Notes under the pieces: generated by a model | Databases searched by the model: none | Seen by the model: the letters and a program-made list of their open reading frames with translations, nothing else | What the model was told of the DNA's origin: nothing | Translations under genes and position numbers: made by a program | Part shown: positions 3,273 through 64,000 of the stretch, in pieces | Layout: each line of letters opens with the position of its first letter | Numbering within the stretch: position 1 is the stretch's first letter | From: Thermodesulfobacteriota bacterium | GTDB lineage: Bacteria; Desulfobacterota_D; UBA1144; Nemesobacterales; JAJCZQ01 | NCBI GenBank assembly: GCA_965203965.1 | Contig: CBDBDR010000017.1 | Span: 278,440 to 342,439 of the forward strand | Direction: 5' to 3' | DNA length: 64,000 bases

Positions 3273-4898
<1,626 letters not shown>

Positions 4899-4918
4899 TC
4901 AGGATTTTTGAATTATAT

Positions 4919-5530
4919 TTAATACTGAGTTTCTTTCAATATTGGCTGTGAATTCAGATAATTTGCCAGCTTTTTAGCGGCTATTGATCTGTGACTTATT
5001 TTATTTTTATCCGCAGGATCAAGTTCTGCCATGGTTTTTTGCATTTCTGGCAGGTAAAAAATTGGATCGTAACCAAAGCCATTATTTCCTCTTTTCTCAT
5101 CTATGATGACCCCTTCACAACTTCCTTCAAACAATTTGGTTGTGCCGCTGGGATTTACAAACGCAATCACGCATACAAATTTAGCTTGCCTGTTTTTTAT
5201 TGCCTTGATATTCTTCAGCAACTTGTTCACATTTTCATCATCTGTGCTGTTATTACCGGCGTATCTTGCTGAATAAATACCCGGTTCTCCGTTCAGAGCT
5301 TTGACGACCAATCCCGAGTCATCGGCGATGGTTATTTTGTTAAAAAAAGCTGAAATTATCTCAGCTTTTTTTAGTGCATTTTCTTCAAACGTACTCCCGT
5401 TTTCAATTATTTTGGGTGCTTGGTCAAAATCCAACAGAGATTTAAAGCTGAAGTAATTGCCAAGTAACTCTGAAAATTCAGCGAGCTTTCCCCTGTTTTT
5501 AGTTGCTATTATTATTTCTTTTGACTCCAT
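4919..5530 (-). CDS. rdgB: Non-canonical purine NTP pyrophosphatase (RdgB/HAM1 ITPase)
   Basis: 203 aa. IIIATKNRGKLAEF… and FGYDPIFY motifs typical of the Ham1 family. Confidence 0.9.
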   Translation of the reverse strand: MESKEIIIATKNRGKLAEFSELLGNYFSFKSLLDFDQAPKIIENGSTFEENALKKAEIISAFFNKITIADDSGLVVKALNGEPGIYSARYAGNNSTDDENVNKLLKNIKAIKNRQAKFVCVIAFVNPSGTTKLFEGSCEGVIIDEKRGNNGFGYDPIFYLPEMQKTMAELDPADKNKISHRSIAAKKLANYLNSQPILKETQY

Positions 5531-5639
5531 GATCCGTGTTTACAACTCACAAGGTATCAAAATTGTTTCAGATAACTGTATGGTTCAATCAATATCTTTA
5601 TCTTTAATTATATTATCTGCATTTTGATGTTTTTTATGT

Positions 5640-8324
5640 ATGCTAATGCCATTCGTAGAAAATAAGGAGGATGGCTTGATGGTAATGCATTGTAAAAAAC
5701 TTTTGTTTATTGTATTTAACTTTTTTGTATTTGTCCCGATAGTTTTTGCTCAGAATACAGATAACTCTGAAAATCAAATATTCAGCTTTGACCCTTTGGT
5801 GATAACGGGAAGTAGAACCATTACTGATGATTCAACTTCTCCCGTACCGGTTGACCGCATAGAAAAGGATGAACTTCTCAAAACTGGACATAATGAACTT
5901 GGCAGGGCAATACAAACGTTGATCCCTTCTTTTAATTTTTCAAGTTCCACAATAAGTGATGGAACAGACTCCGTTCGTCCTGCGACTTTGAGAGGGATGG
6001 GGCCTGACCAAGTGCTTCTGTTGATAAATGGAAAACGTCGACATGGTAGTGCACTTATACACGTAAATACTTCAGTTGGGCGTGGTACAGCGGGCTATGA
6101 CATAAACTCCATACCCATAAGTGCAATTGATCGTGTGGAAGTATTAAGAGATGGAGCTTCTGCTTTGTATGGCTCCGATGCAATAGCTGGTGTCATCAAT
6201 ATAATTTTAAAAACTGACTATGAGGGAGCAGTTTATACTTCTTATGGAGAAACTTATGAGGGAGATGGTGCTCAATTTATAACCAGATTGAACAAAGGGT
6301 TCAGTATTGGTGGGGATGGGGTGCTTCACCTTGCAGCAGAGTTTCGTGATAGGCAGAGAACCAACCGTGCTGGGTTGTCAGGAACAATACAATATCCAGA
6401 CTCTACAAGTTTCCCTCTGGATGATAATGATGACAATAACTTTGACCCAGTTTTGAATACCAATCTCATTAATGAGGGATTTAGACCGGGGACAATCGTT
6501 CTGTTGAATGATCCAGACGGTAAAGAAGCGAGTTTTAACCGCCGTAATTTCCGCATTGGGGATGCTGATGCAGAGTATGTAAGCGGTGTGTATAACTTTG
6601 AAAAACCGATCAGTATTGGCTCAGGTGCAAATATATATTCATTTGGTTCTATTTCACGGAAGGAAAGCACAAGTGGAGGTTTTTACAGAAGAGCAAACGA
6701 TGCCCGGAATCCGGGGGCAAGCTATCCGGATGGATTTCTTCCTCTGATTGAAACTACGGTATGGGATTTTTCACTGAATATGGGTGTAGATTATGAATTT
6801 GATAGTGGTCTCAAAGTTGATCTTGGAGTTACACATGGAGGAAATACCTTTAACTTCGGTGTGAAAAACTCCCATAATGCCTCATGGGTCTATCGTAAAC
6901 TCAATCCCGATACCGATTTCACGTTTGGAACCGCCGCGTTTAGAACTGGTACAGATCCTTTCTCAGAAACGGATTTTTCTGGCTCAATTCCAACCTCCGC
7001 AGACTCGGGGGAACTCGCATTATATCTCACCACAGTAAATCTGGATTTTGTAATGCCTATACAGGATTGGCTTAAACTGGCTTGGGGAGGAGAGTACAAA
7101 AGGGACAACTACAAGATAGAAGCAGGGGATCCTTATTCTTATGAGGATTATGATGGAATTACAGAAAGTGGGGCTCCAGGAGGGATACAGGTTTTTCCAG
7201 GATTTCAACCTGAAAACGAAGTAGATGAATCAAGACATGCTTTTGCTCTTTACACTGAAGCAAGTGTAACTCCTTATGAATCATTACTGATAAGTCCTGC
7301 CGTGCGTTACGAAAGATACAGTGATTTTGGTAACAGTTTGAATGGCAAGATAGCGGCAAAGTTAGACGCTTTTGAAATTATTACTTTCAGAGGTTCACTA
7401 AGCAGTGGGTTCAGGGCACCTTCAATGCAGCAGCTTTACTTCAACAACGTAAGCACTCAATTTCTTCCCGTGGGTAACGATCAGGTTCCTTTTGAGGTTG
7501 GAACTTTCAGAAACGACAGTGAAATAGCCAATGCAATTGGGATCCCTGATCTTGATGAAGAAACTTCTGTAAACTGGAGCGGTGGTTTTTTATTTAAACC
7601 CTTTTCTAATTTCTCCATTACCACGGATTTTTACTACATAACCGTAGATAATAGAATTATCCTAAGCGGTCCATTGGAGCCGGGTAATGAGGCTCTTTCA
7701 CAAACCGCGAGAGAGTTTTTTATTGCTAGAGGCATTGGAAGAGCTCAGTTTTTTATGAACGCGGCTGATACAAGGACAAAAGGTGTGGATATAATTTCCG
7801 CTTGGCAAGTCCCGTTTGTTTCCAAAGGGTCATTGAAACTCAAATTTGCTGGGACAATATCAGACACAAAGATCACTTCAGTGAACCTCCCAGTTGGACT
7901 TCCCGATTCGCTTTACACTGATCGGGATCGTTCCATTTTGGAAGAGTGGCAACCAGATAGTAAATTCACACTTTCAGGTAACTACGATATTAATAGATTT
8001 TCATTTTGGTTAGCATTTCATCGTTATGGTGAATACAGAATAACAAATGGGGGTAGACAACAGACTTACGGTGCTAAATATCTGACCGATGCACAAATGA
8101 GCATTGATCTCGGAAGGTTAGGAGCAATAAAATTCGGAGCTAATAACCTATTTGACGTGACGCCTGATAGGAACGAGATAACTATTTCAAACAGAGGCAC
8201 TATAATAGACCCAGAAGGTAACGTAATTGTGGATTCACCCGGTGTTTTCACTTACTCAAGAGGGTCTGCTCCATTTGGATTTAACGGTGGATTTTATTAT
8301 GTCGCTTTTGAGAGAAGTCTGTAA
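5640..8324 (+). CDS. TonB-dependent outer-membrane receptor. The likely true start is the internal Met near 5679 (MVMHCKK…, signal peptide).
   Basis: Signal peptide, plug-domain motifs (…VITGSRT…, …RGMGPDQVLLLINGKR…) and a long beta-barrel with a C-terminal aromatic-rich end. Confidence 0.85.
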   Translation: MLMPFVENKEDGLMVMHCKKLLFIVFNFFVFVPIVFAQNTDNSENQIFSFDPLVITGSRTITDDSTSPVPVDRIEKDELLKTGHNELGRAIQTLIPSFNFSSSTISDGTDSVRPATLRGMGPDQVLLLINGKRRHGSALIHVNTSVGRGTAGYDINSIPISAIDRVEVLRDGASALYGSDAIAGVINIILKTDYEGAVYTSYGETYEGDGAQFITRLNKGFSIGGDGVLHLAAEFRDRQRTNRAGLSGTIQYPDSTSFPLDDNDDNNFDPVLNTNLINEGFRPGTIVLLNDPDGKEASFNRRNFRIGDADAEYVSGVYNFEKPISIGSGANIYSFGSISRKESTSGGFYRRANDARNPGASYPDGFLPLIETTVWDFSLNMGVDYEFDSGLKVDLGVTHGGNTFNFGVKNSHNASWVYRKLNPDTDFTFGTAAFRTGTDPFSETDFSGSIPTSADSGELALYLTTVNLDFVMPIQDWLKLAWGGEYKRDNYKIEAGDPYSYEDYDGITESGAPGGIQVFPGFQPENEVDESRHAFALYTEASVTPYESLLISPAVRYERYSDFGNSLNGKIAAKLDAFEIITFRGSLSSGFRAPSMQQLYFNNVSTQFLPVGNDQVPFEVGTFRNDSEIANAIGIPDLDEETSVNWSGGFLFKPFSNFSITTDFYYITVDNRIILSGPLEPGNEALSQTAREFFIARGIGRAQFFMNAADTRTKGVDIISAWQVPFVSKGSLKLKFAGTISDTKITSVNLPVGLPDSLYTDRDRSILEEWQPDSKFTLSGNYDINRFSFWLAFHRYGEYRITNGGRQQTYGAKYLTDAQMSIDLGRLGAIKFGANNLFDVTPDRNEITISNRGTIIDPEGNVIVDSPGVFTYSRGSAPFGFNGGFYYVAFERSL

Positions 8325-52574: not shown

Positions 52575-52722
52575 GCCCCGTTGTCAAGTATGGTAAATTG
52601 CCGAGATGATCTATGACGTTTCAGGTTCTAACAAAATATGGGTTCAGAAAAAATAATACAGTAATAAAGTTTCTACAAATTTTCTCTTGACACACGGTTA
52701 TTTGTGCTTAAATTCTGGAATA

Positions 52723-53310
52723 ATGCAAAAGAAACTCGGTGATATTGCTACTGTTCAAATGGGATTTCCCTTTCGTTCACGTATTGAACCAGACGAGGAT
52801 GGAAATGTCTCTATTATTCAAATGAGCAATTTAGGAGAAAATAGTTTGAAGGCTCATACGGATCTGCTCAAGGTTTACCTAAAGAATATATCTCATAAGC
52901 ACTTAGTGAAACAAAAAGATTTGATCTTTCGTTCAAGGGGAAAAACAATAAATGCAGTGATAATTGATAAAGAAATTGAGCGAGCAGTCGTAGCGGCACC
53001 GTTAATTAGAATAAGAGTTACGGAAAAGGACGTTATTCCGGAATATCTTCTCTGGTTCATGAATCAGCCATTATCTCAAGCATTTTTGCACGGCAGAGCC
53101 ACCGGAACTTCAATGCCTATGATCGGTAAGTCAACTCTTGAAGATCTGCGGATTACTATCCCTGATCTTGAAACTCAAAGGCAAATCGTAATACTTGCTC
53201 ATTTATCGGACAAAGAGCAAAAACTAATGAAACGGTTGGCTAAGGCAAATGGTAGTTTAGTTCAAAAAACTTTGAAACAGTTGGTAACAGATCCTAAGAA
53301 GTCTTATTAG
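52723..53310 (+). CDS. hsdS: Type I RM specificity subunit, half-size (single target-recognition domain plus conserved region)
   Basis: ~195 aa with one target-recognition domain and the conserved helical region …LETQRQIVILAHLSDKEQKLMKRL… It is immediately upstream of hsdM. Confidence 0.7.
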   Translation: MQKKLGDIATVQMGFPFRSRIEPDEDGNVSIIQMSNLGENSLKAHTDLLKVYLKNISHKHLVKQKDLIFRSRGKTINAVIIDKEIERAVVAAPLIRIRVTEKDVIPEYLLWFMNQPLSQAFLHGRATGTSMPMIGKSTLEDLRITIPDLETQRQIVILAHLSDKEQKLMKRLAKANGSLVQKTLKQLVTDPKKSY

Positions 53311-53322
53311 AGGAGCAGAGAA

Positions 53323-54837
53323 ATGACAAATGGGACAATAGATCAAAAAAACATAGACAATGCTGCATGGTCTGCCTGCAACACTTTTCGTGGAGTGATG
53401 GACGCGTCCGTTTACAAGGACTACATACTCGTGATGTTGTTTCTCAAATATGTTTCGGATGTTTGGAAGAGCCATTATGAGAAATACAAAAAGCAATACG
53501 GAGACCACAAAGAGCGCATCAACCGCCTTCTTAAAAATGAGCGGTTTGTTTTGCCTAAAGACAGCAGTTTTTACAACCTGTATGAGAATCGTTCTGCTTC
53601 AAATATCGGTGAACTTATAAACATTGCGTTGACCGCATTTGAAGACGAAAACAAAGAGAAACTGGAGGGTGTTTTCCGCAACATTGACTTCAATAGCGAA
53701 ACAAATTTCGGCAAAACAAAAGACCGCAATCGCCGTCTTAAAACACTACTTGAAGATTTGAACAAACCAGAGTTGGATATGAGTCCAGATAATGTTACAG
53801 AAGACATTATCGGCAATACATACATCTATCTGATAGAGCGTTTTGCGTCCGATGCTGGCAAAAAAGCGGGAGAGTTCTACACACCTCACAAGGTTTCGGA
53901 GTTGGTAGCAAAGTTATGCGACCCCAAGCCCGGAGCACGCATTTGCGACCCTACTTGTGGTTCTGGAGGGCTTCTAATTGAAGCCGCGCGCGAAGTGGGT
54001 GGCGATGATTACTCTCTTTGTGGGATGGAAGTCAACGGAGGTACTTGGGCGCTTTGTCGGATGAATATGTTCCTTCACGGGATGGATTCAGCACGAATTG
54101 AATGGTGCAATACATTAACAGCCCCCGGACTCGTGGAAACCGACCGCCTGATGAGGTTTGACAATATTGTCGCAAATCCACCTTTCTCGTTGGATAAGTG
54201 GGGAGCGGAAGAAGCGGGAAACGACATTTACAAGCGTTTTTGGCGAGGAATTCCTCCCAAGTCTAAGGGGGATTACGCTTTCATCAGTCACATGGTGGAG
54301 GCAGCTCTGGAAAAGAAAGGGCGCATTGCGGTTGTTGTCCCACATGGTGTTTTATTCAGGGGCGCGGCAGAGGGGCGTATCCGTCGCCATTTAATAGAAG
54401 AAAATCTGCTGGATGCCGTCATCGGCTTACCGGGTAATCTTTTTCCAACCACGTCCATTCCGGTTGCTATCTTGGTGTTTGACCGTTCACGCGAGACAGG
54501 TGGTGCAAATGAGAAACTCAAGGATGTGTTGTTCATTGATGCAAGCCGTGAGTATGAGTCCGGAAAAAATCAGAACAAGCTACTGGACAAGCATATAGAA
54601 AAGATCGTTGACACATATAAAAAGCGTAAAAGTGTTGACAAATATGCGCATTTGGCAAAACCAGAAGAGATTGAAGAAAACGATTTCAACCTGAACATCC
54701 CGCGTTATGTGGACACCTTTGAGGAAGAAGAGGAGATAGATATAGACGCGGTGCAGCGAGAAATAGATCAACTGGAAAAAGAACTGTCCAAAGTGCGGAT
54801 GGAGATGGCGAAAAAAATGAAGGAGATTAAAAGATGA
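53323..54837 (+). CDS. hsdM: Type I RM N6-adenine DNA methyltransferase subunit
   Basis: N-terminal HsdM domain, motif I (DPTCGSGGLL), motif IV (NPPF). Confidence 0.9.
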   Translation: MTNGTIDQKNIDNAAWSACNTFRGVMDASVYKDYILVMLFLKYVSDVWKSHYEKYKKQYGDHKERINRLLKNERFVLPKDSSFYNLYENRSASNIGELINIALTAFEDENKEKLEGVFRNIDFNSETNFGKTKDRNRRLKTLLEDLNKPELDMSPDNVTEDIIGNTYIYLIERFASDAGKKAGEFYTPHKVSELVAKLCDPKPGARICDPTCGSGGLLIEAAREVGGDDYSLCGMEVNGGTWALCRMNMFLHGMDSARIEWCNTLTAPGLVETDRLMRFDNIVANPPFSLDKWGAEEAGNDIYKRFWRGIPPKSKGDYAFISHMVEAALEKKGRIAVVVPHGVLFRGAAEGRIRRHLIEENLLDAVIGLPGNLFPTTSIPVAILVFDRSRETGGANEKLKDVLFIDASREYESGKNQNKLLDKHIEKIVDTYKKRKSVDKYAHLAKPEEIEENDFNLNIPRYVDTFEEEEEIDIDAVQREIDQLEKELSKVRMEMAKKMKEIKR

Positions 54838-55055
54838 GCAAGATGCCAACAAATAAACATCATCAAACATTTGAGGATGCTTGTCGCCGTACGGAAAACG
54901 GCGCCGAATTTTGGTCTGCACGCGAACTTTTGTCCATTCTCGATTATGGAAGTTGGGATAAATTCAAGGCAGTCATTCATAAGTCTATAAGTGCTTGTGA
55001 GAATTCGGGCATGGTTTCCTCAGACCATTTTTCCCAGATGGGAAAAATGGTCTGA
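54834..55055 (+). pseudogene. DinD-like (DNA-damage-inducible protein D family) N-terminal fragment, 73 aa
   Basis: …HHQTFEDACRRTENGAEFWSARELLSILDYGSWDKFKAVIHKSISACENSG… resembles DinD N-termini. ATGA overlap with the hsdM stop; truncated. Confidence 0.4.
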
Positions 55056-55175: not shown

Positions 55176-55745
55176 TTGAATTTTATGTACACATTAAGCA
55201 AACATATACATAATTTTGAGAGCATTCACCCGTTCCCTGACGGCAATGGTCGCATTGGTCGCGTGCTGAACGTGCTGTATCTGACGCACAAGGGGCTTTT
55301 AGACGCTCCCATCCTTTATTTGAGCCGAGCGATCAACCGCACAAAGCCAGACTACTACCGCTTATTGCAAGCCGTGCGTGAAGAGGGCGCATGGGAAGAA
55401 TGGATCATCTACATACTGAGTGCCGTTACAGAAACGGCAAAATCAACCTTGCAACTTGTATCGGGTATTCGGGAACTGATGGCTGAACACAAAAAACTTA
55501 TACGAGATGAACTGCCGAAAATCTACTCTCAGGACTTGTTGAATAATCTGTTTCGCAACCCCTATACGCGTATTGACTACGTGGCGAAAGACCTAACGGT
55601 TGACCGCAGAACAGCACGCAAGTATCTCAAACAATTAACTGAAAAGGGGATTGTGGAGGAAGTAAAGGCGGGGAGGAACAACTACTACATAAACAAAAAA
55701 CTGGTTGACCTGTTTGTCAGTGTCTCGGTGGAAGGGGATCAGTGA
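55176..55745 (+). pseudogene. Fic-family protein lacking the N-terminal half (begins just before the HPFPDGNGRIGR motif)
   Basis: Canonical Fic motif HPFPDGNGRIGR at residues 18-29, followed by a C-terminal wHTH-like region. A functional Fic fold needs ~100 aa upstream of the motif. Confidence 0.55.
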
Positions 55746-57895
55746 TGAGTAGGAAAGGGGAAAAGGAACGAGCGTTGCCCGATGGGTGGCAGGAAGTGAG
55801 GCTGGGGGACATAATGGAATTCAAAAATGGATTGAATACAGAGAAAGGAAACTATGGTAAGGGTGTAAAATTTGTGAACGTAATGGATGTTTTCAAGTTT
55901 AACTATCTTTATGAACATAATGTTGTTGGCTCTGTTCAAGTTAGTGAAAAAAACAGAATTGAATATTCAGTTAAATATGGGGATATCTTGTTTAATAGGA
56001 CATCTGAAATACTTAATGAGATTGCTATGTCATCTGTATATCTCGATGAGAAAAAAATAATCTTTGGAGGTTTTGTTATTAGAGGACGCCAAAAAATTAC
56101 TGCTCTTACTCCTCGATTTTCTATTTGTTGTCTTCAATCCAATAAAGTACGAAAAGAATTAATAAGACGAGGGCAAGGTGCCGTCCGAGCGAACATTGGA
56201 CAAAAAGATCTAGCGAAAATTCCTGTTGTTATTCCACCGCTCCCCGAACAAAAAGCCATCACCTCTTTACTGGAAACATGGGACACGGCGATTGAGAAAA
56301 CTGAAGCATTGATTGAGGCAAAGGAAAAGCGGTTCAAGTGGTTGCTGAAAACACTCATCAGCAATCAGCAAGACAATCCTGAATGGCGGGAAGTGAGGTT
56401 GGGGGATGTTACGAAGGTTATTGTAGGCCAGTCTCCAAAAGGGATTTTCTATAATACAGAGGGTGAGGGCATGCCCTTCTATCAAGGTAAATCTGAATTT
56501 GGGAAAATCTACATTAACAATCCTAATATGTGGACTACTCAAACAACTAAAACGGCAGAGAAAGGCGATATTCTTATGTCCATTAGAGCTCCTGTTGGGT
56601 CAATTAACCGTACAAATAACAAAATTTGCATTGGCCGAGGGCTTGCTAGTATTAGGGTTCATAGCATCAAACGAACGTTCTTATTTTTTTACTTGCAGTT
56701 TATCAAAAGCCAAATAATAGGAAATGGTGGCTCTATATTCAATTCGATTACTAAGCGTCAAGTTGAACAAATTCCAATTCTTTGCCCCCCAGTTTCTGAA
56801 CAAAAAGCCATTGCTGCTGTACTAAACACGGTACAACGTGAAATTGATCTACTGGAACAACTCACCCAACAATACCGCACACAAAAGCGCGTGCTGATGC
56901 AGAGATTATTGACAGGAGAATGGAGGACAAAGATGAATCGTTATATTCTGAGAATGGGCACTTACGAGTGTCCTAAAACAGTAATTAAAAAAGAAAGATT
57001 TGAACAATTAAAGGAAGCGAGAAATATCTTGTCAAAAGCATTGGTTTTTGAGGGGAATTACGAGATTATAGTGCATAATTACCTTGAGTTGGAAAAAGAA
57101 TTGATGGGAATTACTATTGAAGATATTGGTAGAACTTATTATAGTTATGATGATTTCTTCAATTATACACTTTCTTCTAATATCAGAGTATCAAACCTTC
57201 TGAATTCGGCAAAATTTTACATTGATACACTTTCGCAAACTCTCGAGAACTGCTTTCAAAATGAGGAAGTTTCTCCTGATATAAAACAAATAATCAAAGA
57301 GGATGAGGGCAACTCGCTTCTTGAATTTGTTTATGAACTAAGGAACTATCTTCAGCATGTTGATTTGCCAGTGCATAACACCTTAATAAATAGAAGATGG
57401 ACAGATGACAATCTTATGGAATATTCCACGCATATCTTTTCTTCAAAGAAATATCTTTCAGAGGATGAAAAGTCAGAATCAATACTTAAAAAAATGGAAG
57501 AACAAAAAATAATGAAAGAAGAAGAAATAAACCTAAACCTTACCATTAGACACTATGTAGAATTCATCAGTAAAATGCATATTCAAACGAGATCTAAGAT
57601 AGAAAAAAGAGTTAATGAGGCAAGAGATTGCATAGAATCTACGATTAAGGAATATTTAGACGAACATAGGATTAAGGAAAAGGAATATTTAGATGAAGAT
57701 GGGAAGTTTATAGGTTTTTTACATGCTTTCCATTTCAACCATAGTGAAATAGAAGAGAAAATTCCTTTGTTTCTGGATTACGACGATGTTCGTCTTAATC
57801 TAATACGTAAGAACAACAAAGAACTGGTTAATCTACATAAACGATATGTTACAACACGAGTTGATTCAGTAAATAAGAAGGAAATATCTAAATAA
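55742..57895 (+). CDS. hsdS: Type I RM specificity subunit HsdS (two target-recognition domains, aa ~1-395) fused in-frame to a ~320-aa Lys/Glu-rich C-terminal domain with an Rx4H (HEPN-like) motif; a candidate Abi_2-like abortive-infection domain
   Basis: Conserved HsdS central and C-terminal regions (…YRTQKRVLMQRLLTGEWRTK). There is no stop where the downstream repeat copies of this region carry their TGA, and the frame continues into MNRYIL… The motif ELRNYLQH sits at 57341-57358. Confidence 0.7.
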   Translation: MMSRKGEKERALPDGWQEVRLGDIMEFKNGLNTEKGNYGKGVKFVNVMDVFKFNYLYEHNVVGSVQVSEKNRIEYSVKYGDILFNRTSEILNEIAMSSVYLDEKKIIFGGFVIRGRQKITALTPRFSICCLQSNKVRKELIRRGQGAVRANIGQKDLAKIPVVIPPLPEQKAITSLLETWDTAIEKTEALIEAKEKRFKWLLKTLISNQQDNPEWREVRLGDVTKVIVGQSPKGIFYNTEGEGMPFYQGKSEFGKIYINNPNMWTTQTTKTAEKGDILMSIRAPVGSINRTNNKICIGRGLASIRVHSIKRTFLFFYLQFIKSQIIGNGGSIFNSITKRQVEQIPILCPPVSEQKAIAAVLNTVQREIDLLEQLTQQYRTQKRVLMQRLLTGEWRTKMNRYILRMGTYECPKTVIKKERFEQLKEARNILSKALVFEGNYEIIVHNYLELEKELMGITIEDIGRTYYSYDDFFNYTLSSNIRVSNLLNSAKFYIDTLSQTLENCFQNEEVSPDIKQIIKEDEGNSLLEFVYELRNYLQHVDLPVHNTLINRRWTDDNLMEYSTHIFSSKKYLSEDEKSESILKKMEEQKIMKEEEINLNLTIRHYVEFISKMHIQTRSKIEKRVNEARDCIESTIKEYLDEHRIKEKEYLDEDGKFIGFLHAFHFNHSEIEEKIPLFLDYDDVRLNLIRKNNKELVNLHKRYVTTRVDSVNKKEISK

Positions 57896-58030
57896 TAAAT
57901 GACTTCATCTCAATTATTATAAGATTGAACAAAATTGTTTGATCTTATAAATTCTTGAGGTCTATGAAAAGCCTTGGAATTAACAAGACCACAGGCTACC
58001 GAATTGGCTCAACGGCTCAAAAAGAAATAA

Positions 58031-58355
58031 ACTTGCTCAAACAATTATCTGAACAATACCGCACTCAAAAACGCGGGCTGATGCAGAAGTTGCTGACTGG
58101 AGAATGGAGGGTAAAGATATGATTACAAAAATCACGATGAACAATGTTACCAGTTTTAAAGAGAAAACCAGATTCATCTTTAACCGCTTGGGTTATGAAT
58201 TTTCTAATGCGGTTCAAACGCCCATTAAAGGCAGAGTTAGCCCTTCTACGTAAGGTCAAAGTTCTGGTTGGATCAGTGCGTCTTCTTTCTGCCATTATGG
58301 GTTTTACCTTTGAGCTTCATCCAAGCCACAAAACGTGGTAATGTAGTATAATTTT
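58031..58355 (+). repeat. Direct repeat R1 core (325 bp): an hsdS 3'-end copy (…QYRTQKRGLMQKLLTGEWRVKI*) plus a 45-codon 5' stub of an AAA_15/RloA-like ATPase gene (MITKITMNNVTSFKEKTRFIF…)
   Basis: ~93% identical to 59816-60140. A further homologous stretch (58440-58700 vs 60230-60480) extends each copy to ~650 bp. Confidence 0.8.
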
Positions 58356-58794
58356 CATTTACTAATAGTATAGTTTTTTCTGTATAATAATTTTCAGCAA
58401 TTCAGTATAGAAATAACGTTTTCTACATGATGAAACAAAGTTTGATCATTTGGAATTATACTGTTCCATGATCAGGTCTATAAAGAGTTTTACAATGGGT
58501 GAAGCCATTCCTCAGACTCAGTCGGCGGAGTTGTATTGGCGGTTACGAGAGCCAAGCGGGCAAAACCACGCTGGCGTATCGTACGAAAATGTTCAATACA
58601 TTGAACAAAATTGTTTGATCTGATAAATTCTTGAGGTCTATGAAAAGCCTTGGAATTAACAAGACCACAGGCTACTGAACTGGCTCAACAGCTCAAAAAG
58701 AAATAGACTTGCTCAAACAATTAGCAGAACGATACCGCACTCAAAAGCGCGGGCTGATGCAGAAGTTGCTGACTGGGGAGTGGAGAGTGAAGAG

Positions 58795-59742
58795 ATGAGC
58801 ACATCTTTTAAAATATTAAGCATAGATGGTGGAGGAGTGCGAGGAATTCTTCCCGCCAAGATACTGAAGCTCATGGAAGCCGAGCTCGGCATAGACGTAC
58901 ATGAAACCTTTGATCTCATTGTTGGCACTAGCACTGGTAGTATCATAGCTGGGGCAATCGCCGTAAAGTACAAATTGGCTAAATTAGTAAGTGATTACAA
59001 TGAAAATGCTCCGAAAGTTTTCAAGAAAAGATGGAATTTCATGGGGCTTTACAGATCTAAATACAGTTCAGCCTTCCTTGAAAGTTTTCTTCGTAAAATA
59101 TTTGGTGAGGTTACATTGGGAGAAATAGAAAAACCGCTCATTCTTAATGCTACAAATATCAGCGATGGTAATCTTCATGTTTTCAAGTCATCGTATCAAA
59201 AAAAACAACGAGAGGGGGAAGAGGAGCAGGTTTATAACAGGGATGGAGGAGTACCTTTGTACAAAGCAACTCTAGCCTCTTGTTCGGCACCAATTTATTT
59301 TGATCCGGTGAAGATAATATTTGATCCGGTGGATAAAGAAGAAAAACTTATTTGTGACGGGGGTATTTGGGCTAATAATCCTTCCTTGGTTGGATACAGT
59401 GACGCTATCAGGAATTTCAAGAATGTTGGAACCGATAATGTCAAGATCTTGTCTTTGGGAACTGGACAAACCAAGCAAATTTACCAACCAGCAAAAGCAT
59501 GGGGATACTTAACGGGATGGAAACATACGAAATTGATAGACTTCTCCATATCATGTCAGACAGAGTTTCCTAAAAATGTTTTGGAACTTATTGATTTAGA
59601 TAAAATTCTCAGGATCAACCCTTCTATTGATAATTACGAGATTGACAATTACCAAAGCATCCCAAAGTTAATGGAACTGGCTAAAAAGGAATTCAATAGT
59701 AGCAGTGAAAAAATTTCAAATTTTCTTAACATAAGAAGATAG
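58795..59742 (+). CDS. Patatin-like phospholipase (PNPLA family)
   Basis: Oxyanion hole SIDGGGVRGI, nucleophile elbow GTSTG (GxSxG), catalytic Asp motif CDGGIWANNP. ~316 aa. The start codon (GTG) overlaps the last hsdS 3'-end copy (copy B). Confidence 0.8.
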   Translation: MSTSFKILSIDGGGVRGILPAKILKLMEAELGIDVHETFDLIVGTSTGSIIAGAIAVKYKLAKLVSDYNENAPKVFKKRWNFMGLYRSKYSSAFLESFLRKIFGEVTLGEIEKPLILNATNISDGNLHVFKSSYQKKQREGEEEQVYNRDGGVPLYKATLASCSAPIYFDPVKIIFDPVDKEEKLICDGGIWANNPSLVGYSDAIRNFKNVGTDNVKILSLGTGQTKQIYQPAKAWGYLTGWKHTKLIDFSISCQTEFPKNVLELIDLDKILRINPSIDNYEIDNYQSIPKLMELAKKEFNSSSEKISNFLNIRR

Positions 59743-59815
59743 GAGACAAAAATTACAGTTTACGAGGAAAAATTTGTTCTCTTTTCTGATAGGTATTCCT
59801 GTCAAAAAGAAATGG

Positions 59816-60140
59816 ACTTGCTCAAACAATTAGCAGAACGATACCGCACTCAAAAACGCGGTTTGATGCAGAGGTTGTTGACTGGAGAATGGAGGGTGAA
59901 GATATGATCACAAAGATCACGATGAACAACATCACCAGTTTTAAAGAGAAAAGCAGATTCATCTTTAACCGCTTGGGTTATGAATTTTCTAATGAGGTTC
60001 AAACGCCCATTAAAGGCAGAGTTAGCCCTTCTACGTAAGGTTAAAGTTCTGGTTAGATCAGTGCGTCTTCTTTCTGCCATTATGCGTCTTACCTTTGAGC
60101 TTCATCCAAGCCACAAAACGTGGTAATGTAGTATAATTTT
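59816..60140 (+). repeat. Direct repeat R2 core (325 bp), copy of R1: hsdS 3' end (…LLTGEWRVKI*) plus the ATPase 5' stub
   Basis: See R1. Together R1 and R2 bracket the patatin gene. Confidence 0.8.
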
Positions 60141-60408
60141 TTCCACCCAATATGGAGAAAAAACTGTATAGAAATTTTTACTGATTGTTGTATAAAAATA
60201 GAATTATAAGGCTGAATTTTCGGCATTATATTGCTCCATGATCAGGTCTATAAAGAGTTTTACAATGAGTGAAGCCATTCCTCAGACTCAGTCGGCGGAG
60301 TTGTATTGGCGGTTACGAAAGCCAAGCAGGCAAGACCACGCTGGCGTACCGTACGAAAATGTTCAGTACATTGAACAAAATTGTTTCATCTGATAAACTT
60401 TCACATCT

Positions 60409-60687
60409 ATGAAAAGCCTGGAATTAACAAGACCACAGGCTACCGAACTGGCTCAACGGCTCAAAAAGCCTTGCCGGTTTATTCAGTCCATATCGGGGGC
60501 GAAGCAGAAAAGAAAAGTCGCTTTGCTGATATTGGGTGAGGTGCAGAAGTTTCCACACTGGTCAGCGATTGTAAAATATCTTTGGGATGAAGATAGTCGC
60601 ATGAAAAGAATGGTGGCGGCAAAGTGCCTGTTTCGTTTCCCAGATTGGACGTTTTTTGCAAAATATTCAAAACTGCTCAGCAGTTGA
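60409..60687 (+). pseudogene. Degenerate copy of the DUF4143 AAA ATPase gene (61018-62223) with two large internal deletions; the Walker A region is lost
   Basis: N-terminus MKSLELTRPQATELAQRLKKPCRFIQSISGAKQ matches the intact gene, then jumps to …KRKVALLILGEVQKFPHW…SRMKRMV…FPDWTFFAKYSKLL. Confidence 0.6.
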
Positions 60688-60726
60688 TCGTTTCCTGTCA
60701 ACGCCTGCGGAACATTGGTTAAATTG

Positions 60727-60897
60727 ATGCCTGATTTTCTATTTGACGAAAAAAGCCTCTCCCAGATCCCAGCTTTACAGCAGTTGATCAATCCAGTGCA
60801 ACAATTGGTTTTTGGGATGAATGGAAGAAAGAAAAGGATGGACAAAGGAATAAAAGAATCTATTGAAACATTAAGAAAACAGAGTAAATCTCAATGA
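60727..60897 (+). pseudogene. Duplicated 5' fragment of hsdR (first ~21 codons, MPDFLFDEKSLSQIPALQQLI) followed by unrelated sequence
   Basis: Near-identical to the hsdR start at 62223 (MPDFLSDEKCLSQIPALQQLI). The preceding ~60 nt also match the 3' end of the intact ATPase gene. Confidence 0.5.
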
Positions 60898-60946
60898 AAA
60901 TAACACTAAAACAGGGGAAGCAAGCACTGCTTTTAAATAACAAAAA

Positions 60947-60986
60947 TGTTCAATACATTGAACATTTTTGTTCAATGTATTGAACA
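60947..60986. promoter_or_regulatory. Two tandem operator-like palindromes (TGTTCAAT-ac-ATTGAACA and TGTTCAAT-gt-ATTGAACA, centres 22 bp apart) 32 bp upstream of the ATPase gene
   Basis: Perfect 8-bp inverted arms. Single copies or remnants precede each ATPase 5' fragment (58595-58612, 60362-60379, partial at 57927-57945). Confidence 0.4.
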
Positions 60987-61017
60987 AAATTGTTCAGTCT
61001 GATAATCTTTTTAGGCG

Positions 61018-62223
61018 ATGAAAAGTCCGAAATTCATAAGACCTCAAGCCACCGAATTATTGCGACGACTCAAAGAGCCTCGCCGGTTTATTCAATCCAT
61101 ATCGGGGGCGAGGCAGATCGGCAAAACAACCCTTGCCCTACAAGTGGCAGAGCAAAGCCGATTGCCTTATCACTTTGCAAGTGCTGATAGGCCGACGCTT
61201 CGCGCCGGTGATGGATGGATCGTGTCGCAATGGAAGGAGGCGCGACATCTGGCGGAACAATCAAAAAGGAAAGGCGCTTTGCTGATATTGGATGAGGTGC
61301 ATAAGGTTCCACACTGGCCAGCGACTGTAAAAGGTCTTTGGGATGAAGATACTCGCATGAAAAGAATGGTGAAGGTGGTGCTGCTCGGTTCAGCACCGCT
61401 GTTGATCGGGCGAGGACTTACGGAAAGCCTCGCCGGGCGTTTTGAAACCGTGTATCTGCCACATTGGAGTTTTCCCGAGATGCGAGATGCCTTCGGATGG
61501 GATTTGCAACAATATCTTTTTTACGGTGCCTATCCGGGAGCCTCACCCTTCATAAAACAGCCGGCGCGCTGGTCGCGCTACATAAAGAACTCTCTTATAG
61601 AAACAACCATTTCCCGCGATGTGCTTTTATTTTCCCCTGTGGACAAACCGGCTTTGCTTAGGCAATTGTTCGAGATGGGTTGTTCCTATTCGGGGCAGGT
61701 ACTCTCTTACAGAAAACTTGCAGGACTGCTTCAGGATAAAGGTAACGTTACCACCCTTGCGCATTACCTTGACTTGCTCGCCGGAGTCGGCACGGTTGCC
61801 GGGTTGCAAAAATATGCGGGTAGCTTCGGGGCACGCCGGCGTTCCATACCCAAACTTCAAGTCTTCAACACTGCCCTGATCACCGCGCAATCTGGGATGA
61901 CCTGGCAGGAGGTGTTCAAAGATGGACGACTGCTGGGGCGGCTTACGGAGTCGGCCGTGGGAGCTCATCTGCTCAATGCAGCCACTGGCGGGGAGTGTGA
62001 ATTATTCTATTGGCGAGATAACAATCGCGAAGTAGATTTTGTTTTGCGCAGAGGAAAGAAGCTTGTTGCCATAGAAGTAAAAAGCGGTAAAATGCCTGTT
62101 TCGTTTCCCGGATTGGATGCTTTTTCCAAAATATTCAAAACTGCTCAGCAGTTGATTGTTGGTGAAGGCGGAATTCCCATTGATCGTTTCCTGTCAACAC
62201 CTGCGGAACATTGGTTAAATTGA
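61018..62223 (+). CDS. AAA+ ATPase of the AAA_14/DUF4143 family
   Basis: Walker A SGARQIGKTTLA, Walker B LLILDEVHK, C-terminal DUF4143-like region. Strongly GC-rich compared with its surroundings. Its stop overlaps the hsdR ATG. Confidence 0.8.
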   Translation: MKSPKFIRPQATELLRRLKEPRRFIQSISGARQIGKTTLALQVAEQSRLPYHFASADRPTLRAGDGWIVSQWKEARHLAEQSKRKGALLILDEVHKVPHWPATVKGLWDEDTRMKRMVKVVLLGSAPLLIGRGLTESLAGRFETVYLPHWSFPEMRDAFGWDLQQYLFYGAYPGASPFIKQPARWSRYIKNSLIETTISRDVLLFSPVDKPALLRQLFEMGCSYSGQVLSYRKLAGLLQDKGNVTTLAHYLDLLAGVGTVAGLQKYAGSFGARRRSIPKLQVFNTALITAQSGMTWQEVFKDGRLLGRLTESAVGAHLLNAATGGECELFYWRDNNREVDFVLRRGKKLVAIEVKSGKMPVSFPGLDAFSKIFKTAQQLIVGEGGIPIDRFLSTPAEHWLN

Positions 62224-64000
62224 TGCCTGATTTTCTATCTGACGAAAAATGCCTCTCCCAGATCCCAGCTTTACAGCAACTGATAAATCTGGGCTATGAG
62301 TATCTGCCACCTGAACAGGCGTTTCAGGAACGCAATAGCAAATACGGCAATGTTTTGCTGGAAAACATACTGCGAGACCAACTCAAAAAAATAAACCGCA
62401 TTAATTATAGAGGCAGAGAATACCTTTTCAGTGAGGAGAACATTCAGTCTGCCATTGAGAAGATCAAAAACATTCCATATGACGGTTTGATAAAAACAAA
62501 TGAAAAGATCTACGATCTTTTGACGCTTGGCACGTCGCTTAAGCAGACCATTGAGGGCGATTCCAAAAGTCACACACTTCGCTATATTGACTGGGAAAAT
62601 ACGAATGCAAATGTTTTTCACGCCACTGCGGAGTTTTCGGTTGAACGTTCCCGGAGTTCTGAAACTGTAAGACCGGACATTGTGCTGTTTGTAAACGGCA
62701 TTCCTCTTGTTGTGATTGAGTGCAAAACGTCCGGAGTTGCCGTGGATGAAGGCGTTTCTCAGATGATCCGCAATCAGGGAGAGGATCATATTCCTCGCCT
62801 TTTTACTTATGTGCAGTTGGTAATGGCTGTAAATAAGAATGAGGCAAAATACGCGACCGCCGGAACTTCAAAGAAATTCTGGAGCGTCTGGAAAGAGTTA
62901 GAAGATCACGAAGATGAAACAAAAACCATTGTGGATCAACCGCTTTCAGATGAGAACAAGAATGTTCTTTTTTCTTCCAATGAATTTGCTTATGCCCGTG
63001 CGCATTTTGATAAAATTGAGAGCCAAGGTGGACGTCTTGTTACGGAACAAGATAAAGCAGTTCATAGCCTGTGCCGTCCTGAGCGCCTGCTTGAGATCGT
63101 TTACGGGTTTACAATTTTTGATAGTAAAACAAAAAAAATTGCCAGATACCAACAGTTCTTTCTTGTTCGCTCGGCAATTAAAAACATCAAAACAAAAAAC
63201 AGTGAGGGTGTGAGAAAAGGTGGGATCGTGTGGCACACGCAAGGTTCTGGTAAATCCATAACAATGGTTATGCTCACGCGAGCCCTTGTGATGGATCCGG
63301 AACTGAAAAACACGCGGATCATTCTTGTTACAGACCGCAAAGATCTGGACGAACAACTCGGCAACACCTTTGCTGCTTGCGGTTTGAACAAAGAACGCGC
63401 CACTTCGGGACGTGATCTGGTCAAGCATATAAAACGCAAGACGGACATTATCACCACGTTGATAAACAAATTTGAAACGGCATCTGCTGCCGAAAAATAC
63501 GTAGATGATTCACCTGATATTATCGCTCTTGTGGACGAGAGCCACCGCACAAATTTCGGGGAATTGTCCGCAAATATGAGGAGGATGCTTCCAAAGGCAT
63601 GCTTTATAGGTTTTACCGGCACTCCGTTGCTAAAAAAAGAGAAAAACAGTTTTGCGCGCTTTGGGGAGTTGATTGAGCCGTCTTATCCGGTCAGAGCAGC
63701 CATAGATGACAAACAGGTTGTCCCTCTGATCTACGAGGGTCGGCATGTGGAGATAAAACAGGATAAAGAAGCCATTGATAAATGGTTTGCCCGTCATACT
63801 GAGGGGCTTTCCGATAAACAGAAAACTGATCTAAAGAAAAAATATTCACGTGCTGCAAAACTGAACAATTCCGATAGGGTCATCTATATGACGGCTTTTG
63901 ACATTAGCGAGCATTTTCGCGCCAATTGGAAAGAGACGGGAGAGATGGGATTTAAGGCTCAACTTGTGGCTCTGAACAAGGCAACTGCTCTTAAATATCA
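62223..64000 (+). CDS. hsdR: Type I restriction enzyme R subunit HsdR, N-terminal ~592 codons; continues beyond the window
   Basis: The reading frame is open to the window end. HsdR N-terminal nuclease region (…IVLFVNGIPLVVIECKTSG…) and SF2 helicase motifs (TQGSGKS, VDESHR). Absent from the ORF track because there is no stop in the window. Confidence 0.85.
   Translation, partial: MPDFLSDEKCLSQIPALQQLINLGYEYLPPEQAFQERNSKYGNVLLENILRDQLKKINRINYRGREYLFSEENIQSAIEKIKNIPYDGLIKTNEKIYDLLTLGTSLKQTIEGDSKSHTLRYIDWENTNANVFHATAEFSVERSRSSETVRPDIVLFVNGIPLVVIECKTSGVAVDEGVSQMIRNQGEDHIPRLFTYVQLVMAVNKNEAKYATAGTSKKFWSVWKELEDHEDETKTIVDQPLSDENKNVLFSSNEFAYARAHFDKIESQGGRLVTEQDKAVHSLCRPERLLEIVYGFTIFDSKTKKIARYQQFFLVRSAIKNIKTKNSEGVRKGGIVWHTQGSGKSITMVMLTRALVMDPELKNTRIILVTDRKDLDEQLGNTFAACGLNKERATSGRDLVKHIKRKTDIITTLINKFETASAAEKYVDDSPDIIALVDESHRTNFGELSANMRRMLPKACFIGFTGTPLLKKEKNSFARFGELIEPSYPVRAAIDDKQVVPLIYEGRHVEIKQDKEAIDKWFARHTEGLSDKQKTDLKKKYSRAAKLNNSDRVIYMTAFDISEHFRANWKETGEMGFKAQLVALNKATALKY

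Follow-up and report, generated by a model that had tools for sequence, protein, structure and literature searches.

A phased palindromic array as the probable self-operator of a PDC-S01 ATPase gene, with probable recombination scars in a type I restriction–modification operon

In a 64-kb stretch of a Thermodesulfobacteriota genome (64,000 nt of contig CBDBDR010000017.1, called here the window), a gene for a 401-aa AAA_14+DUF4143 ATPase of the PDC-S01 family lies within a type I restriction–modification (R-M) operon, behind tandem palindromes and several broken copies of itself. The palindromes are probably the operator of the ATPase gene, at which the protein would repress its own synthesis, and the broken copies are probably scars of additive recombination. 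The anatomy of the palindromic array, its conservation, its phasing, its specificity to the ATPase gene and its covariation with the protein were observed directly in the window and in homologous loci (labelled L003, L049, etc.) compared with it. Genes and gene fragments are on the + strand unless stated otherwise.

The palindrome TGTTCAAT-N2-ATTGAACA occurs, with at most two mismatches, at four sites in the 64 kb (58590, 60360, 60947 and 60969), all at the ATPase locus. Shuffling predicts 0.06 sites, and none of 100 shuffles reaches four; the concern raised in the initial annotation, that the palindrome might be common genome-wide and hence non-specific, thus finds no support within the window. 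Two sites precede the intact gene. P1 (60947..60964, TGTTCAATACATTGAACA) is an exact match with a counterpart at −71 or −72 in orthologues L003–L005, and P2 (60969..60986, TGTTCAATGTATTGAACA) starts 22 bp after P1, a phasing also kept in orthologues. The sole difference between P1 and P2 is the central dinucleotide (AC versus GT), so that they are exact reverse complements and could form an 18-bp hairpin with a TTTT loop. A fifth half-site follows on the + strand (60990..61006, TTGTTCAG; half-site start 60991, another 22 bp on), and after it comes a −10-like GATAAT (61001–61006). A −35-like TTGAAC (60980–60985) lies within the right arm of P2. These two elements are the best promoter candidate, in analogy to TTGAAC-17-TAGAAT in L003. 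A consensus promoter scan did not call the operator region of the window, because the spacer is 15–16 nt. The two other sites are the operator of a degraded ATPase allele (60360..60377, TGTTCAGTACATTGAACA, one mismatch) and an orphan operator (58590..58607), a perfect palindrome with a −10-like GATAAA ∼190 nt 5′ of a patatin gene. In a fifth copy of the palindrome (57907–57952), the right half alone remains.

The array extends far beyond the window. A genome scan with one genome per species, of which the best 80 of 591 relatives (57–80% identity) were kept, found the gene in Nitrospirales, Latescibacterota, Acidobacteriota, Chloroflexota, Gemmatimonadota, Binatia, Planctomycetota, Proteobacteria, Bacteroidota and Verrucomicrobiota. 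Plasmids of Thermus, Coxiella, Bacteroides and Collinsella carry homologues at 41–56% identity, and a metagenome scan added others at 24–64%; in IMG/VR, no viral contig encodes a close relative of the ATPase. Homologous loci number ∼170 in all (25–82% identity, >10 phyla plus plasmids), most of them with phased dyads at the same place. In nearly every locus, the array consists of alternating inverted half-sites 5′ of the start codon, with a spacing of 11 bp between half-sites and 22 bp between palindromes. An 8+2+8 palindrome within −130..+8 is present in 71 of 85 loci, compared with 11.6% of random windows from the same loci, and at least three half-site pentamers are present in 62 of 85, compared with 1.3% of background windows. 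In 933 kb of related loci, the ACTCA-type dyad marks the ATPase start 64 times and is found at only one other place. The window and its closest relatives (≥76% identity) have one to four tandem copies of the palindrome, 22 bp apart, and orthologues in unrelated contexts have identical or near-identical tandem palindromes at −72 and −50, at the same distance from the start. The earlier suggestion that the palindromes travel with the gene is borne out by these observations.

The half-site itself differs between lineages of the protein: ACTCA in 102 loci, GTTCA in 11, ACTAG in four, TCGAA in four and ACGCA in two, with CTATCA, GCTCA and others besides. Lineage-specific half-sites could be traced in homologues down to ∼35% identity; at ∼25–28% identity, lineage-specific dyads or direct repeats were seen in only some cases. 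Among distant homologues, L114, L115, L120, L121 and L168 have three or four direct repeats at ∼22-bp spacing (e.g. ATTTGAACATTTTGTA four times or TTGAGAATTTTT three times) and no clear palindromes, as if one half-site per dyad had degenerated.

This distribution bears on whether the palindromes serve a host-encoded global regulator, such as a LexA-like repressor of the SOS response. LexA boxes have the form TGTTC-N4-GAACA in Verrucomicrobia and CGAAC-N4-GTTCG in Gram-positive bacteria. The arms TGTTC and GAACA of the palindrome recall these boxes, and the sites overlap a promoter-like region. However, the spacing is N8 instead of N4, the motif is found nowhere else in the window and it follows one gene across >10 phyla and plasmids. 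It also tracks the ATPase lineage and not the host phylum, with GTTCA in Coxiella and in a Dadabacteria-like genome and ACTCA in most Proteobacteria. A host regulator is hence very improbable, and a LexA/SOS box proper was rejected on the N8 separation and on the confinement of all four sites in 64 kb to the ATPase gene, without the recurrence expected of a regulon.

The position of the array points to transcription. The consensus of 41 arrays of the ACTCA clade, tT....tTaCTCA.tatatTGAGTAAAaTTACTCA.tatatTGAGTAA, contains four half-sites exactly 11 bp apart, with most positions held in at least 36 of the 41. Within this array, a TTG stands 17 nt 5′ of a central TAAAAT in a promoter-like arrangement, and the two elements may well constitute a promoter overlapped by the array. 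Most of the ∼170 loci show this overlap of the dyads with the putative promoter. The start codon, too, is often part of the last half-site (ATGAGTAA or TTGAGTAA); taken together with the TTG-17-TAAAAT arrangement, this predicts an almost leaderless mRNA.

The same symmetry could alternatively act as a nucleic-acid structure, either a hairpin in the leader RNA (as an attenuator, or in mRNA stability or translation control) or a DNA cruciform. The 18-bp P1/P2 hairpin would be stable if single-stranded (−32.8 kcal/mol, z = −7.9), overlapping half-sites permit alternative pairings and in many loci the start codon is inside the second palindrome. The hairpin follows automatically from the equality of the two palindromes, and what is conserved is the sequence of the half-site, not pairing alone, as seen in the 102 ACTCA loci and in the 41-array consensus. 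Moreover, the putative −35 and −10 elements are inside the array, about half of which would then remain untranscribed, and no T-run follows the hairpin on the sense strand (on the minus strand, the hairpin does score as terminator-like). No meaningful Rfam match was found: a scan of 52–64 kb at E ≤ 1 returned only chance microRNA- or riboswitch-like matches far below gathering scores. A structural role would also leave the covariation with a protein residue, described below, unexplained. Altogether, a primary role as a structure is quite improbable.

The protein most closely tied to the array is the ATPase, the only one that always accompanies it, in a cassette without any other gene. The intact gene of the window (61018–62223) encodes, in this order, an AAA_14 domain (4.5e-21, 75.6 bits, cut-off 27) and a DUF4143 domain (2.2e-29, 102.7 bits, cut-off 28.1) according to Pfam. 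The PADLOC model of PDC-S01, PDLC04791, aligns over positions 2–394 of its 395 with residues 6–400 (E = 7.5e-162), and the protein can be aligned end to end with hundreds of 401-aa orthologues. The Walker A (G35-K36-T37) and Walker B (L88-L89-I-L91-D92-E93) motifs are intact, and invariant or nearly so across 76 orthologues. In the AlphaFold2 model (pLDDT 82.7, the predicted local distance difference test score), an AAA+ domain is followed by a winged helix and a C-terminal alpha-beta-beta-beta-alpha-beta unit. The winged helix (approximately residues 210–282) has the canonical H-b-H-H-b-b order, with H210–223, a strand, H231–237, H244–256 and two wing strands. The C-terminal unit of the full-length model (H303–323, E328–334, E337–345, E348–355, H364–372, E377–382; H, helix; E, strand) holds a putative PD-(D/E)xK-type core in which D340 and E353 are invariant and K355 is conserved in at least 90%; modelled as an isolated domain, it gave a pLDDT of 48, too poor for a fold search. 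The best structural matches of the ATPase are archaeal AAA+/winged-helix ATPases (2qen, 2fna), CED-4, Orc1/Cdc6 on origin DNA, ORC4, RuvB and DnaA. A sequence search of the PDB with the family profile found no relative.

Position 244 links this winged helix to the array. It is the first residue of the predicted recognition helix H244–256, in the motif GN-x-TTLAHY. Thr244 is found in 93 of the 102 ACTCA loci and in all ACTAG, ACGCA and GCTCA loci. In the GTTCA loci (11 of 11), residue 244 is V, I or A and never Thr. When the 401 positions were ranked for the use, by all four GTTCA lineages, of residues rare in the other group, residue 244 came first, and among the top-ranked columns it alone is otherwise conserved (T in 101 of 110). 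Two of the switches are clearly independent. In the clade of the window, residue 244 is V or I, and the nearest relatives, L008 and L009, have T244 with ACTCA operators. In the Coxiella plasmid gene, A244 goes with GTTCA in a protein that is 59–62% identical to ACTCA-type proteins and 53% identical to the window clade. Furthermore, residues 244–246 change with the half-site in the TCGAA, CTATCA and distant ACTAG lineages, e.g. I/L-E-T with TCGAATAATTATTCGA. Residues 232, 377 and 390 were also considered as diagnostic of GTTCA and failed when more lineages were added, R390 being present in L008/L009 as well and Q232 in ACTCA loci.

Fic, which has a C-terminal winged helix and is the only other nearby protein of this kind, was considered as the regulator and rejected, since it is present in 4 of ∼87 loci. 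A separate helix-turn-helix regulator, of the sort the initial annotation proposed to look for, is not needed, because the ATPase always accompanies the site and the recognition residue of its winged helix co-varies with the half-site. Collectively, this is good indirect evidence, drawn from sequence and from a predicted structure, that the winged helix of the ATPase itself reads the array. We infer DNA binding and repression on this basis. The winged helix would bind the alternating half-sites; as these are 11 bp apart and the palindromes 22 bp apart, all sites would be on one face of the DNA. Since the array overlaps the predicted core promoter, the ATPase would shut off its own transcription. 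Operator and gene would form a self-contained unit of ∼1.3 kb, exchanged horizontally and often placed just 5′ of hsdR in type I R-M operons.

Several points weigh against this explanation. A recognizable dyad is missing in ∼15% of the loci. Residue 244 is insufficient alone, nine ACTCA loci having V, A or S at this position. A Bacteroidota-like clade has V244 with both operator types, and therefore only two of the four GTTCA lineages are clean independent switches; more generally, the counts overstate independence because the sequences are phylogenetically related. In the window clade, the promoter assignment is weak, given the 15–16 nt spacer and the missing call in the consensus scan. A hairpin, in RNA or DNA, would maintain the palindromes equally well. 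Finally, the recombination route proposed below for the scars is reconstructed from end products only.

The foreign origin of the intact gene, suspected at the outset from its composition, is corroborated by its relatives. Its GC content is 50.4% (49.5% at third codon positions, GC3), compared with a window mean of 40.0%. The nearest relatives of the protein (79–82% amino acid identity) are in metagenome-assembled genomes of Nitrospirales, Poriferihabitaceae and Latescibacterota. The transketolase gene of the window has a GC3 of 37.7%, and the only named relatives of its product, at 64–67% identity, are from Candidatus Dadabacteria.

Upstream of the intact gene lies a degraded allele (60409..60727), aligned by blastn in four blocks: 60360–60508 with 60969–61117 (79%), 60508–60615 with 61264–61371 (91%), 60616–60692 with 62084–62160 (91%) and 60684–60793 with 62180–62289 (95%). 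The last block is a 110-nt direct repeat that includes a 5′ stub of hsdR (60727..60793). The initial annotation correctly took this region for the same gene, with a tail that copies the junction between the ATPase 3′ end and the hsdR 5′ end. Its count of two internal deletions has to be raised to three, one of 146 nt that takes out the Walker A motif and two others of 712 and 19 nt. Besides Walker A, the degraded allele lacks the winged helix, the putative nuclease core and the greater part of the AAA+ domain. Its GC content is 45%, compared with 50% for the intact gene.

Two further 5′ stubs of 61 nt, starting MKSLGINK..., lie more upstream. One (58640..58700, frameshifted) is joined to a copy of the hsdS 3′ end (58701–58798). 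The other (57964–58024) belongs to a segment (57924..58122) made up of half an operator, the stub and an hsdS 3′-end copy, and this segment is 93% identical to 58600–58798. Both stubs share the same junction, where CTCAAAAAG of the ATPase 5′ end meets AAATAGAC of the ∼100-nt hsdS 3′ conserved region. Each stub shares 91% identity with the 5′ end of the degraded copy and ∼77% with the intact gene. The homology of the fragments to the intact ATPase, on which the earlier reading depended, is thus upheld by alignments at 79–95% and, for the stubs, at ∼77%.

A possible third, diverged N-terminal fragment of the ATPase (58519..58579, with a copy at 60289–60349) reads QSAELYWRLREP ... QAGKTTLAY. It matches ATPase residues 10–21 and 33–41 in adjacent frames, collinearly, the two matches being individually weak (E = 0.6 and 1.8). 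The initial annotation had grouped this GKTTLAY piece with the MKSLGINK stubs behind the operator. The grouping holds for the latter; the GKTTLAY piece is upstream of the operator and its homology is weakly supported. With this piece included, remnants of at least three ATPase alleles are present, judging from their sequences.

The fragments form part of a larger pattern. A 684-nt unit is repeated at 88% identity (58017–58700 versus 59802–60468, blastn), with the order hsdS 3′ end, a stub starting MITKITMNN..., the GKTTLAY piece, operator and ATPase 5′ end. The hsdS 3′ conserved region is present in one more extra copy, the third (59812..59907), after the patatin gene. Each cargo segment has its own copy of this region in front, and each extra operator in the window lies at a junction of unrelated segments. 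The start codon of the patatin gene overlaps the stop of the hsdS 3′ stub ORF (open reading frame) in an ATGA (58795–58798). As this overlap combines with an orphan operator ∼190 nt upstream, a captured ATPase promoter could drive patatin transcription and place it under ATPase control. The duplicated 49-aa stub starts MITKITMNN(V/I)TSFKEK (58120–58253 and 59905–60038) and is overlapped by a 76-aa ORF on the opposite strand; it resembles the N-terminal ends of RloA/PrrC-type ATPases, which are found within type I R-M loci. Pfam gave nothing significant for the ATPase stubs, the GKTTLAY piece, the MITKITMNN stub, the reverse-strand ORF 58065–58295 or a 60-aa ORF at 60715–60897.

Tandem duplication within the genome followed by decay would account for part of this arrangement, namely the layout operator-ATPase-hsdR5′/operator-ATPase-hsdR and the repeated 684-nt unit. 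It fits less well with the mosaic identity of the degraded copy (79% at the 5′ end and 91–95% elsewhere), the higher GC content of the intact copy (50% versus 45%), a 146-nt segment (60794–60939) without counterpart in the first unit and at least three distinguishable ATPase 5′ sequences. Decay of an internal duplication is accordingly a minor possibility.

The simplest history, as far as can be read from these sequences, is the repeated addition of foreign versions of the interval. The degraded copy and the 5′ stubs would be non-functional scars left as foreign alleles of the hsdS-cargo-ATPase-hsdR interval were added again and again. In each addition, one crossover would fall within the conserved sequence of the hsdS 3′ region, the ATPase gene or hsdR, and the joint at the opposite end would be illegitimate. 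In this way, no fewer than three ATPase alleles and as many cargo segments (a fused ORF of unknown function, a short N-terminal stub and the patatin gene) would have accumulated. This history is supported by the mosaic identity of the degraded copy, by the fact that the stubs match the degraded allele and not the intact one, by the occurrence of one ATPase-5′/hsdS-3′ junction in both stubs, and by analogous structures in L049 and L024.

In L049 (Binatia, 5581–7473), the ATPase and hsdR genes are coupled through ATGA, as in the window, although this hsdR is 27% identical to that of the window; a 269-nt pseudo-copy of the hsdR 5′ end with an in-frame stop lies 5′ of the operator. In L024 (4724–7276), an orphan operator (4889–4925) is followed by a HicA/HicB pair and then by an intact operator and ATPase, with three diverged copies of the zwf 3′ end, a window-like pattern at an unrelated locus. 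In Nitrospirales L003 (9207–9338), L005 and L006, an hsdR 5′ stub (MQDFRFNEKYLS...) follows the ATPase stop, hsdR is gone and an aminotransferase gene comes next; by sequence, these three loci are decay stages of one R-M locus.

Direct repeats of local sequence also bracket the cassette elsewhere. In 9 of ∼78 loci (L011, L019, L024, L027, L045, L049, L059, L060 and L065), the operator+ATPase unit (1.3–1.45 kb) is flanked by imperfect direct repeats of 30–399 nt that are 81–94% identical; the bracket of the window is the 110-nt pair 60684–60793/62180–62289 at 95%. Pseudo-cassettes set at other places of these loci as controls gave 7 matches in 267, all of 19–61 nt and none with E < ∼1e-6. The varying length of the bracketing repeats argues against target duplication of the transposase type. 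Either a circular copy inserted in the Campbell manner or homologous anchoring on one side would fit as their source, and the protein's own nuclease may conceivably have a part in forming them. A transposon-like element was rejected, as the array is at one end only and the flanking direct repeats are of 30–399 nt and 81–95% identical. A phase-variable hsdS shufflon was rejected too: the extra hsdS pieces are ∼100-nt direct repeats of the 3′ conserved region only, and there is no recombinase in 45.6–64 kb of the window.

The brackets raise the question of whether the dyad array serves first of all in recombination or mobility, bound by the ATPase-nuclease and cut there or close by, with autoregulation as a secondary property. 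Such cutting would let the cassette insert or take up adjacent genes, and would leave the stubs and flanking repeats as its products. All extra operators of the window lie at junctions of unrelated segments, HicAB is placed between an orphan operator and an intact cassette in L024 and the brackets stand out against the weak control matches. In addition, the predicted PD-(D/E)xK-type domain has its invariant D340 and E353 and near-invariant K355, and the one PDC-S01 representative assayed in E. coli B gave no protection against phages T4, T5 and T7 (PMC12881386). Against this, repeat length and identity vary widely, as those of target-site duplications do not, ∼88% of the loci have no bracket and a single operator set, and the 3′ end of the cassette has no such array. 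The same end products would result from ordinary homology-anchored recombination of foreign alleles, without any dedicated activity. A primary mobility site is therefore unlikely.

In the same vein, PDC-S01 ATPases might be selfish cassettes instead of phage-defence effectors, the protein both repressing itself and initiating recombination at the array in its own promoter, which would be its only conserved target in the genome. This is speculative and has a low probability. If true, it would explain the operator-bounded stubs, the cargo at orphan operators (patatin in the window, HicAB in L024) and the repeat brackets in ∼12% of loci. The many operator variants would then act as incompatibility groups, by which several paralogues could share one genome. 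Self-repression at the array, together with additive recombination of foreign alleles, remains the preferred explanation.

The surroundings consist of a type I R-M operon that spans 52.7–64 kb of the window on the + strand (Pfam, PADLOC). It begins with a half-size hsdS (52687–53310, 207 aa, one Methylase_S domain), which lies directly 5′ of hsdM (53323–54837, GC 45%) and is present besides a full hsdS downstream. A Bro-N-like fragment (54834–55055) and a 5′-truncated SoFic-type Fic gene (55176–55745) follow. A perfect 17-bp inverted repeat with a 2-nt spacer (TCAGACCATTTTTCCCA/TGGGAAAAATGGTCTGA, 55020–55055) closes the Bro-N-like fragment and thus stands between hsdM and Fic. The truncated Fic is 82% identical to a full-length Fic directly 5′ of the ATPase orthologue in L004 (6738–7841), a locus without R-M genes, and Fic also adjoins the ATPase in L007 (5240–5764); Fic and PDC-S01 may be a recurrent pair. 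The full hsdS is fused, without an intervening stop, to a 319-aa ORF of 31% GC (55742–57895 for both) that has no significant Pfam match. The fusion point is the exact end of the other hsdS 3′ copies (GEWR[VT]K), and the 319-aa ORF is probably another cargo gene with its start fused to hsdS. A repeat-rich stretch of ∼3 kb then leads to the ATPase. It holds one intact gene, for a patatin phospholipase (58795–59742, GC 38%; E = 2.5e-81 with the PADLOC ‘Effector phospholipase’ models). The ATPase gene (61018–62223), on the same strand as hsdM and hsdS before it, overlaps the ATG of hsdR with its stop in an ATGA. hsdR itself (62223–64000; HSDR_N, SWI2_SNF2 and ResIII in Pfam) encodes the restriction subunit and runs off the window. 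In the genome scan, hsd genes are near the ATPase in ∼18 of 80 loci, often with hsdR directly 3′ of it. Related loci have other cargo in the same slot, such as RhuM/Fic, a Schlafen-AlbA2 protein or a PIN-TPR-GreAB-C system.

The PDC-S01 family (COG1373; AAA_14+DUF4143), a phage-defence candidate in PADLOC, was defined through ‘guilt by embedding’ in R-M operons (bioRxiv 10.1101/2024.01.29.577857). It reportedly ranks fourth in abundance among prokaryotic ‘defence’ loci and has been described as an ATPase with a fused PD-(D/E)xK domain (PMC12988326). Reports give 29,494 bacterial and 9,986 archaeal matches for it and place it first in frequency among single loci of rumen genomes. DUF4143 figures among the PD-(D/E)XK families of unknown function (PMC3424549). 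The ATPase of the window shares with the founding examples its Pfam architecture, a full-length PADLOC match and the embedding in a type I R-M operon. Both the family and its occurrence inside R-M operons are already known; we found no description of a family-wide phased operator or of its apparent recognition code. Our literature coverage, which is incomplete, yielded only surveys and no published operator, autoregulation or winged-helix recognition code for DUF4143, COG1373, AAA_14 or PDC-S01.

The phased operator with its specificity code would be the first concrete molecular property of this abundant family, so far devoid of a mechanism. It names a DNA ligand, a predicted contact residue and a regulatory prediction, and it offers a practical marker of cassette boundaries. 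The window is also an unusually legible record of cargo stacking in the hsdS-hsdR slot of a type I R-M operon.

One functional parallel is with the controller (C) proteins of type II R-M systems. C proteins such as C.AhdI, C.PvuII and C.Esp1396I bind tandem palindromic operators over their own promoters, often with leaderless transcripts, and the element moves with the unit. The array resembles C-boxes in its tandem palindromes at the gene's own start, probably over the promoter, which travel with a mobile unit, and diverged specificities would insulate co-resident systems. It differs in that C proteins are small Xre-type helix-turn-helix dimers without an enzymatic domain, whereas here the putative regulator is a 401-aa AAA+/winged-helix/nuclease protein and the array has three to eight phased half-sites. 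Membership in the C-protein/C-box class was rejected, since the cassette has no Xre-type ORF and no HTH_3-type match and its only protein is the 401-aa ATPase.

A second parallel is with Orc1/Cdc6 on its origin recognition boxes (ORBs), a functional resemblance in arrangement and not a family membership. In contrast to Orc1/Cdc6, ORC4 and DnaA, to which it has no sequence relationship, the ATPase of the window has an extra predicted PD-(D/E)xK domain. Its array overlaps a putative promoter and the start codon and not an AT-rich unwinding element, and its gene is patchily distributed and horizontally transferred.

As for the genomic setting, genes embedded in type I R-M loci, such as PrrC, which is almost exclusive there, occupy like those of the window a same-strand hsdS-hsdR slot with variable cargo, here Fic, the fused ORF, patatin and the ATPase. 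In addition, the window keeps probable scars (hsdS 3′ repeats, ATPase 5′ stubs and an hsdR 5′ stub) that would document several successive exchanges. Two known mechanisms, homology-facilitated illegitimate recombination with its one-sided homologous anchor and Campbell-type insertion, provide the last comparison. The end products fit these mechanisms, with the short microhomology joint between CTCAAAAAG and AAATAGAC on one side and with imperfect repeats of the anchor genes, namely of the 5′ end of hsdR (window, L049) and of the 3′ end of zwf (L024). The locus may well have been built by this kind of recombination around a mobile, probably self-repressing ATPase cassette.

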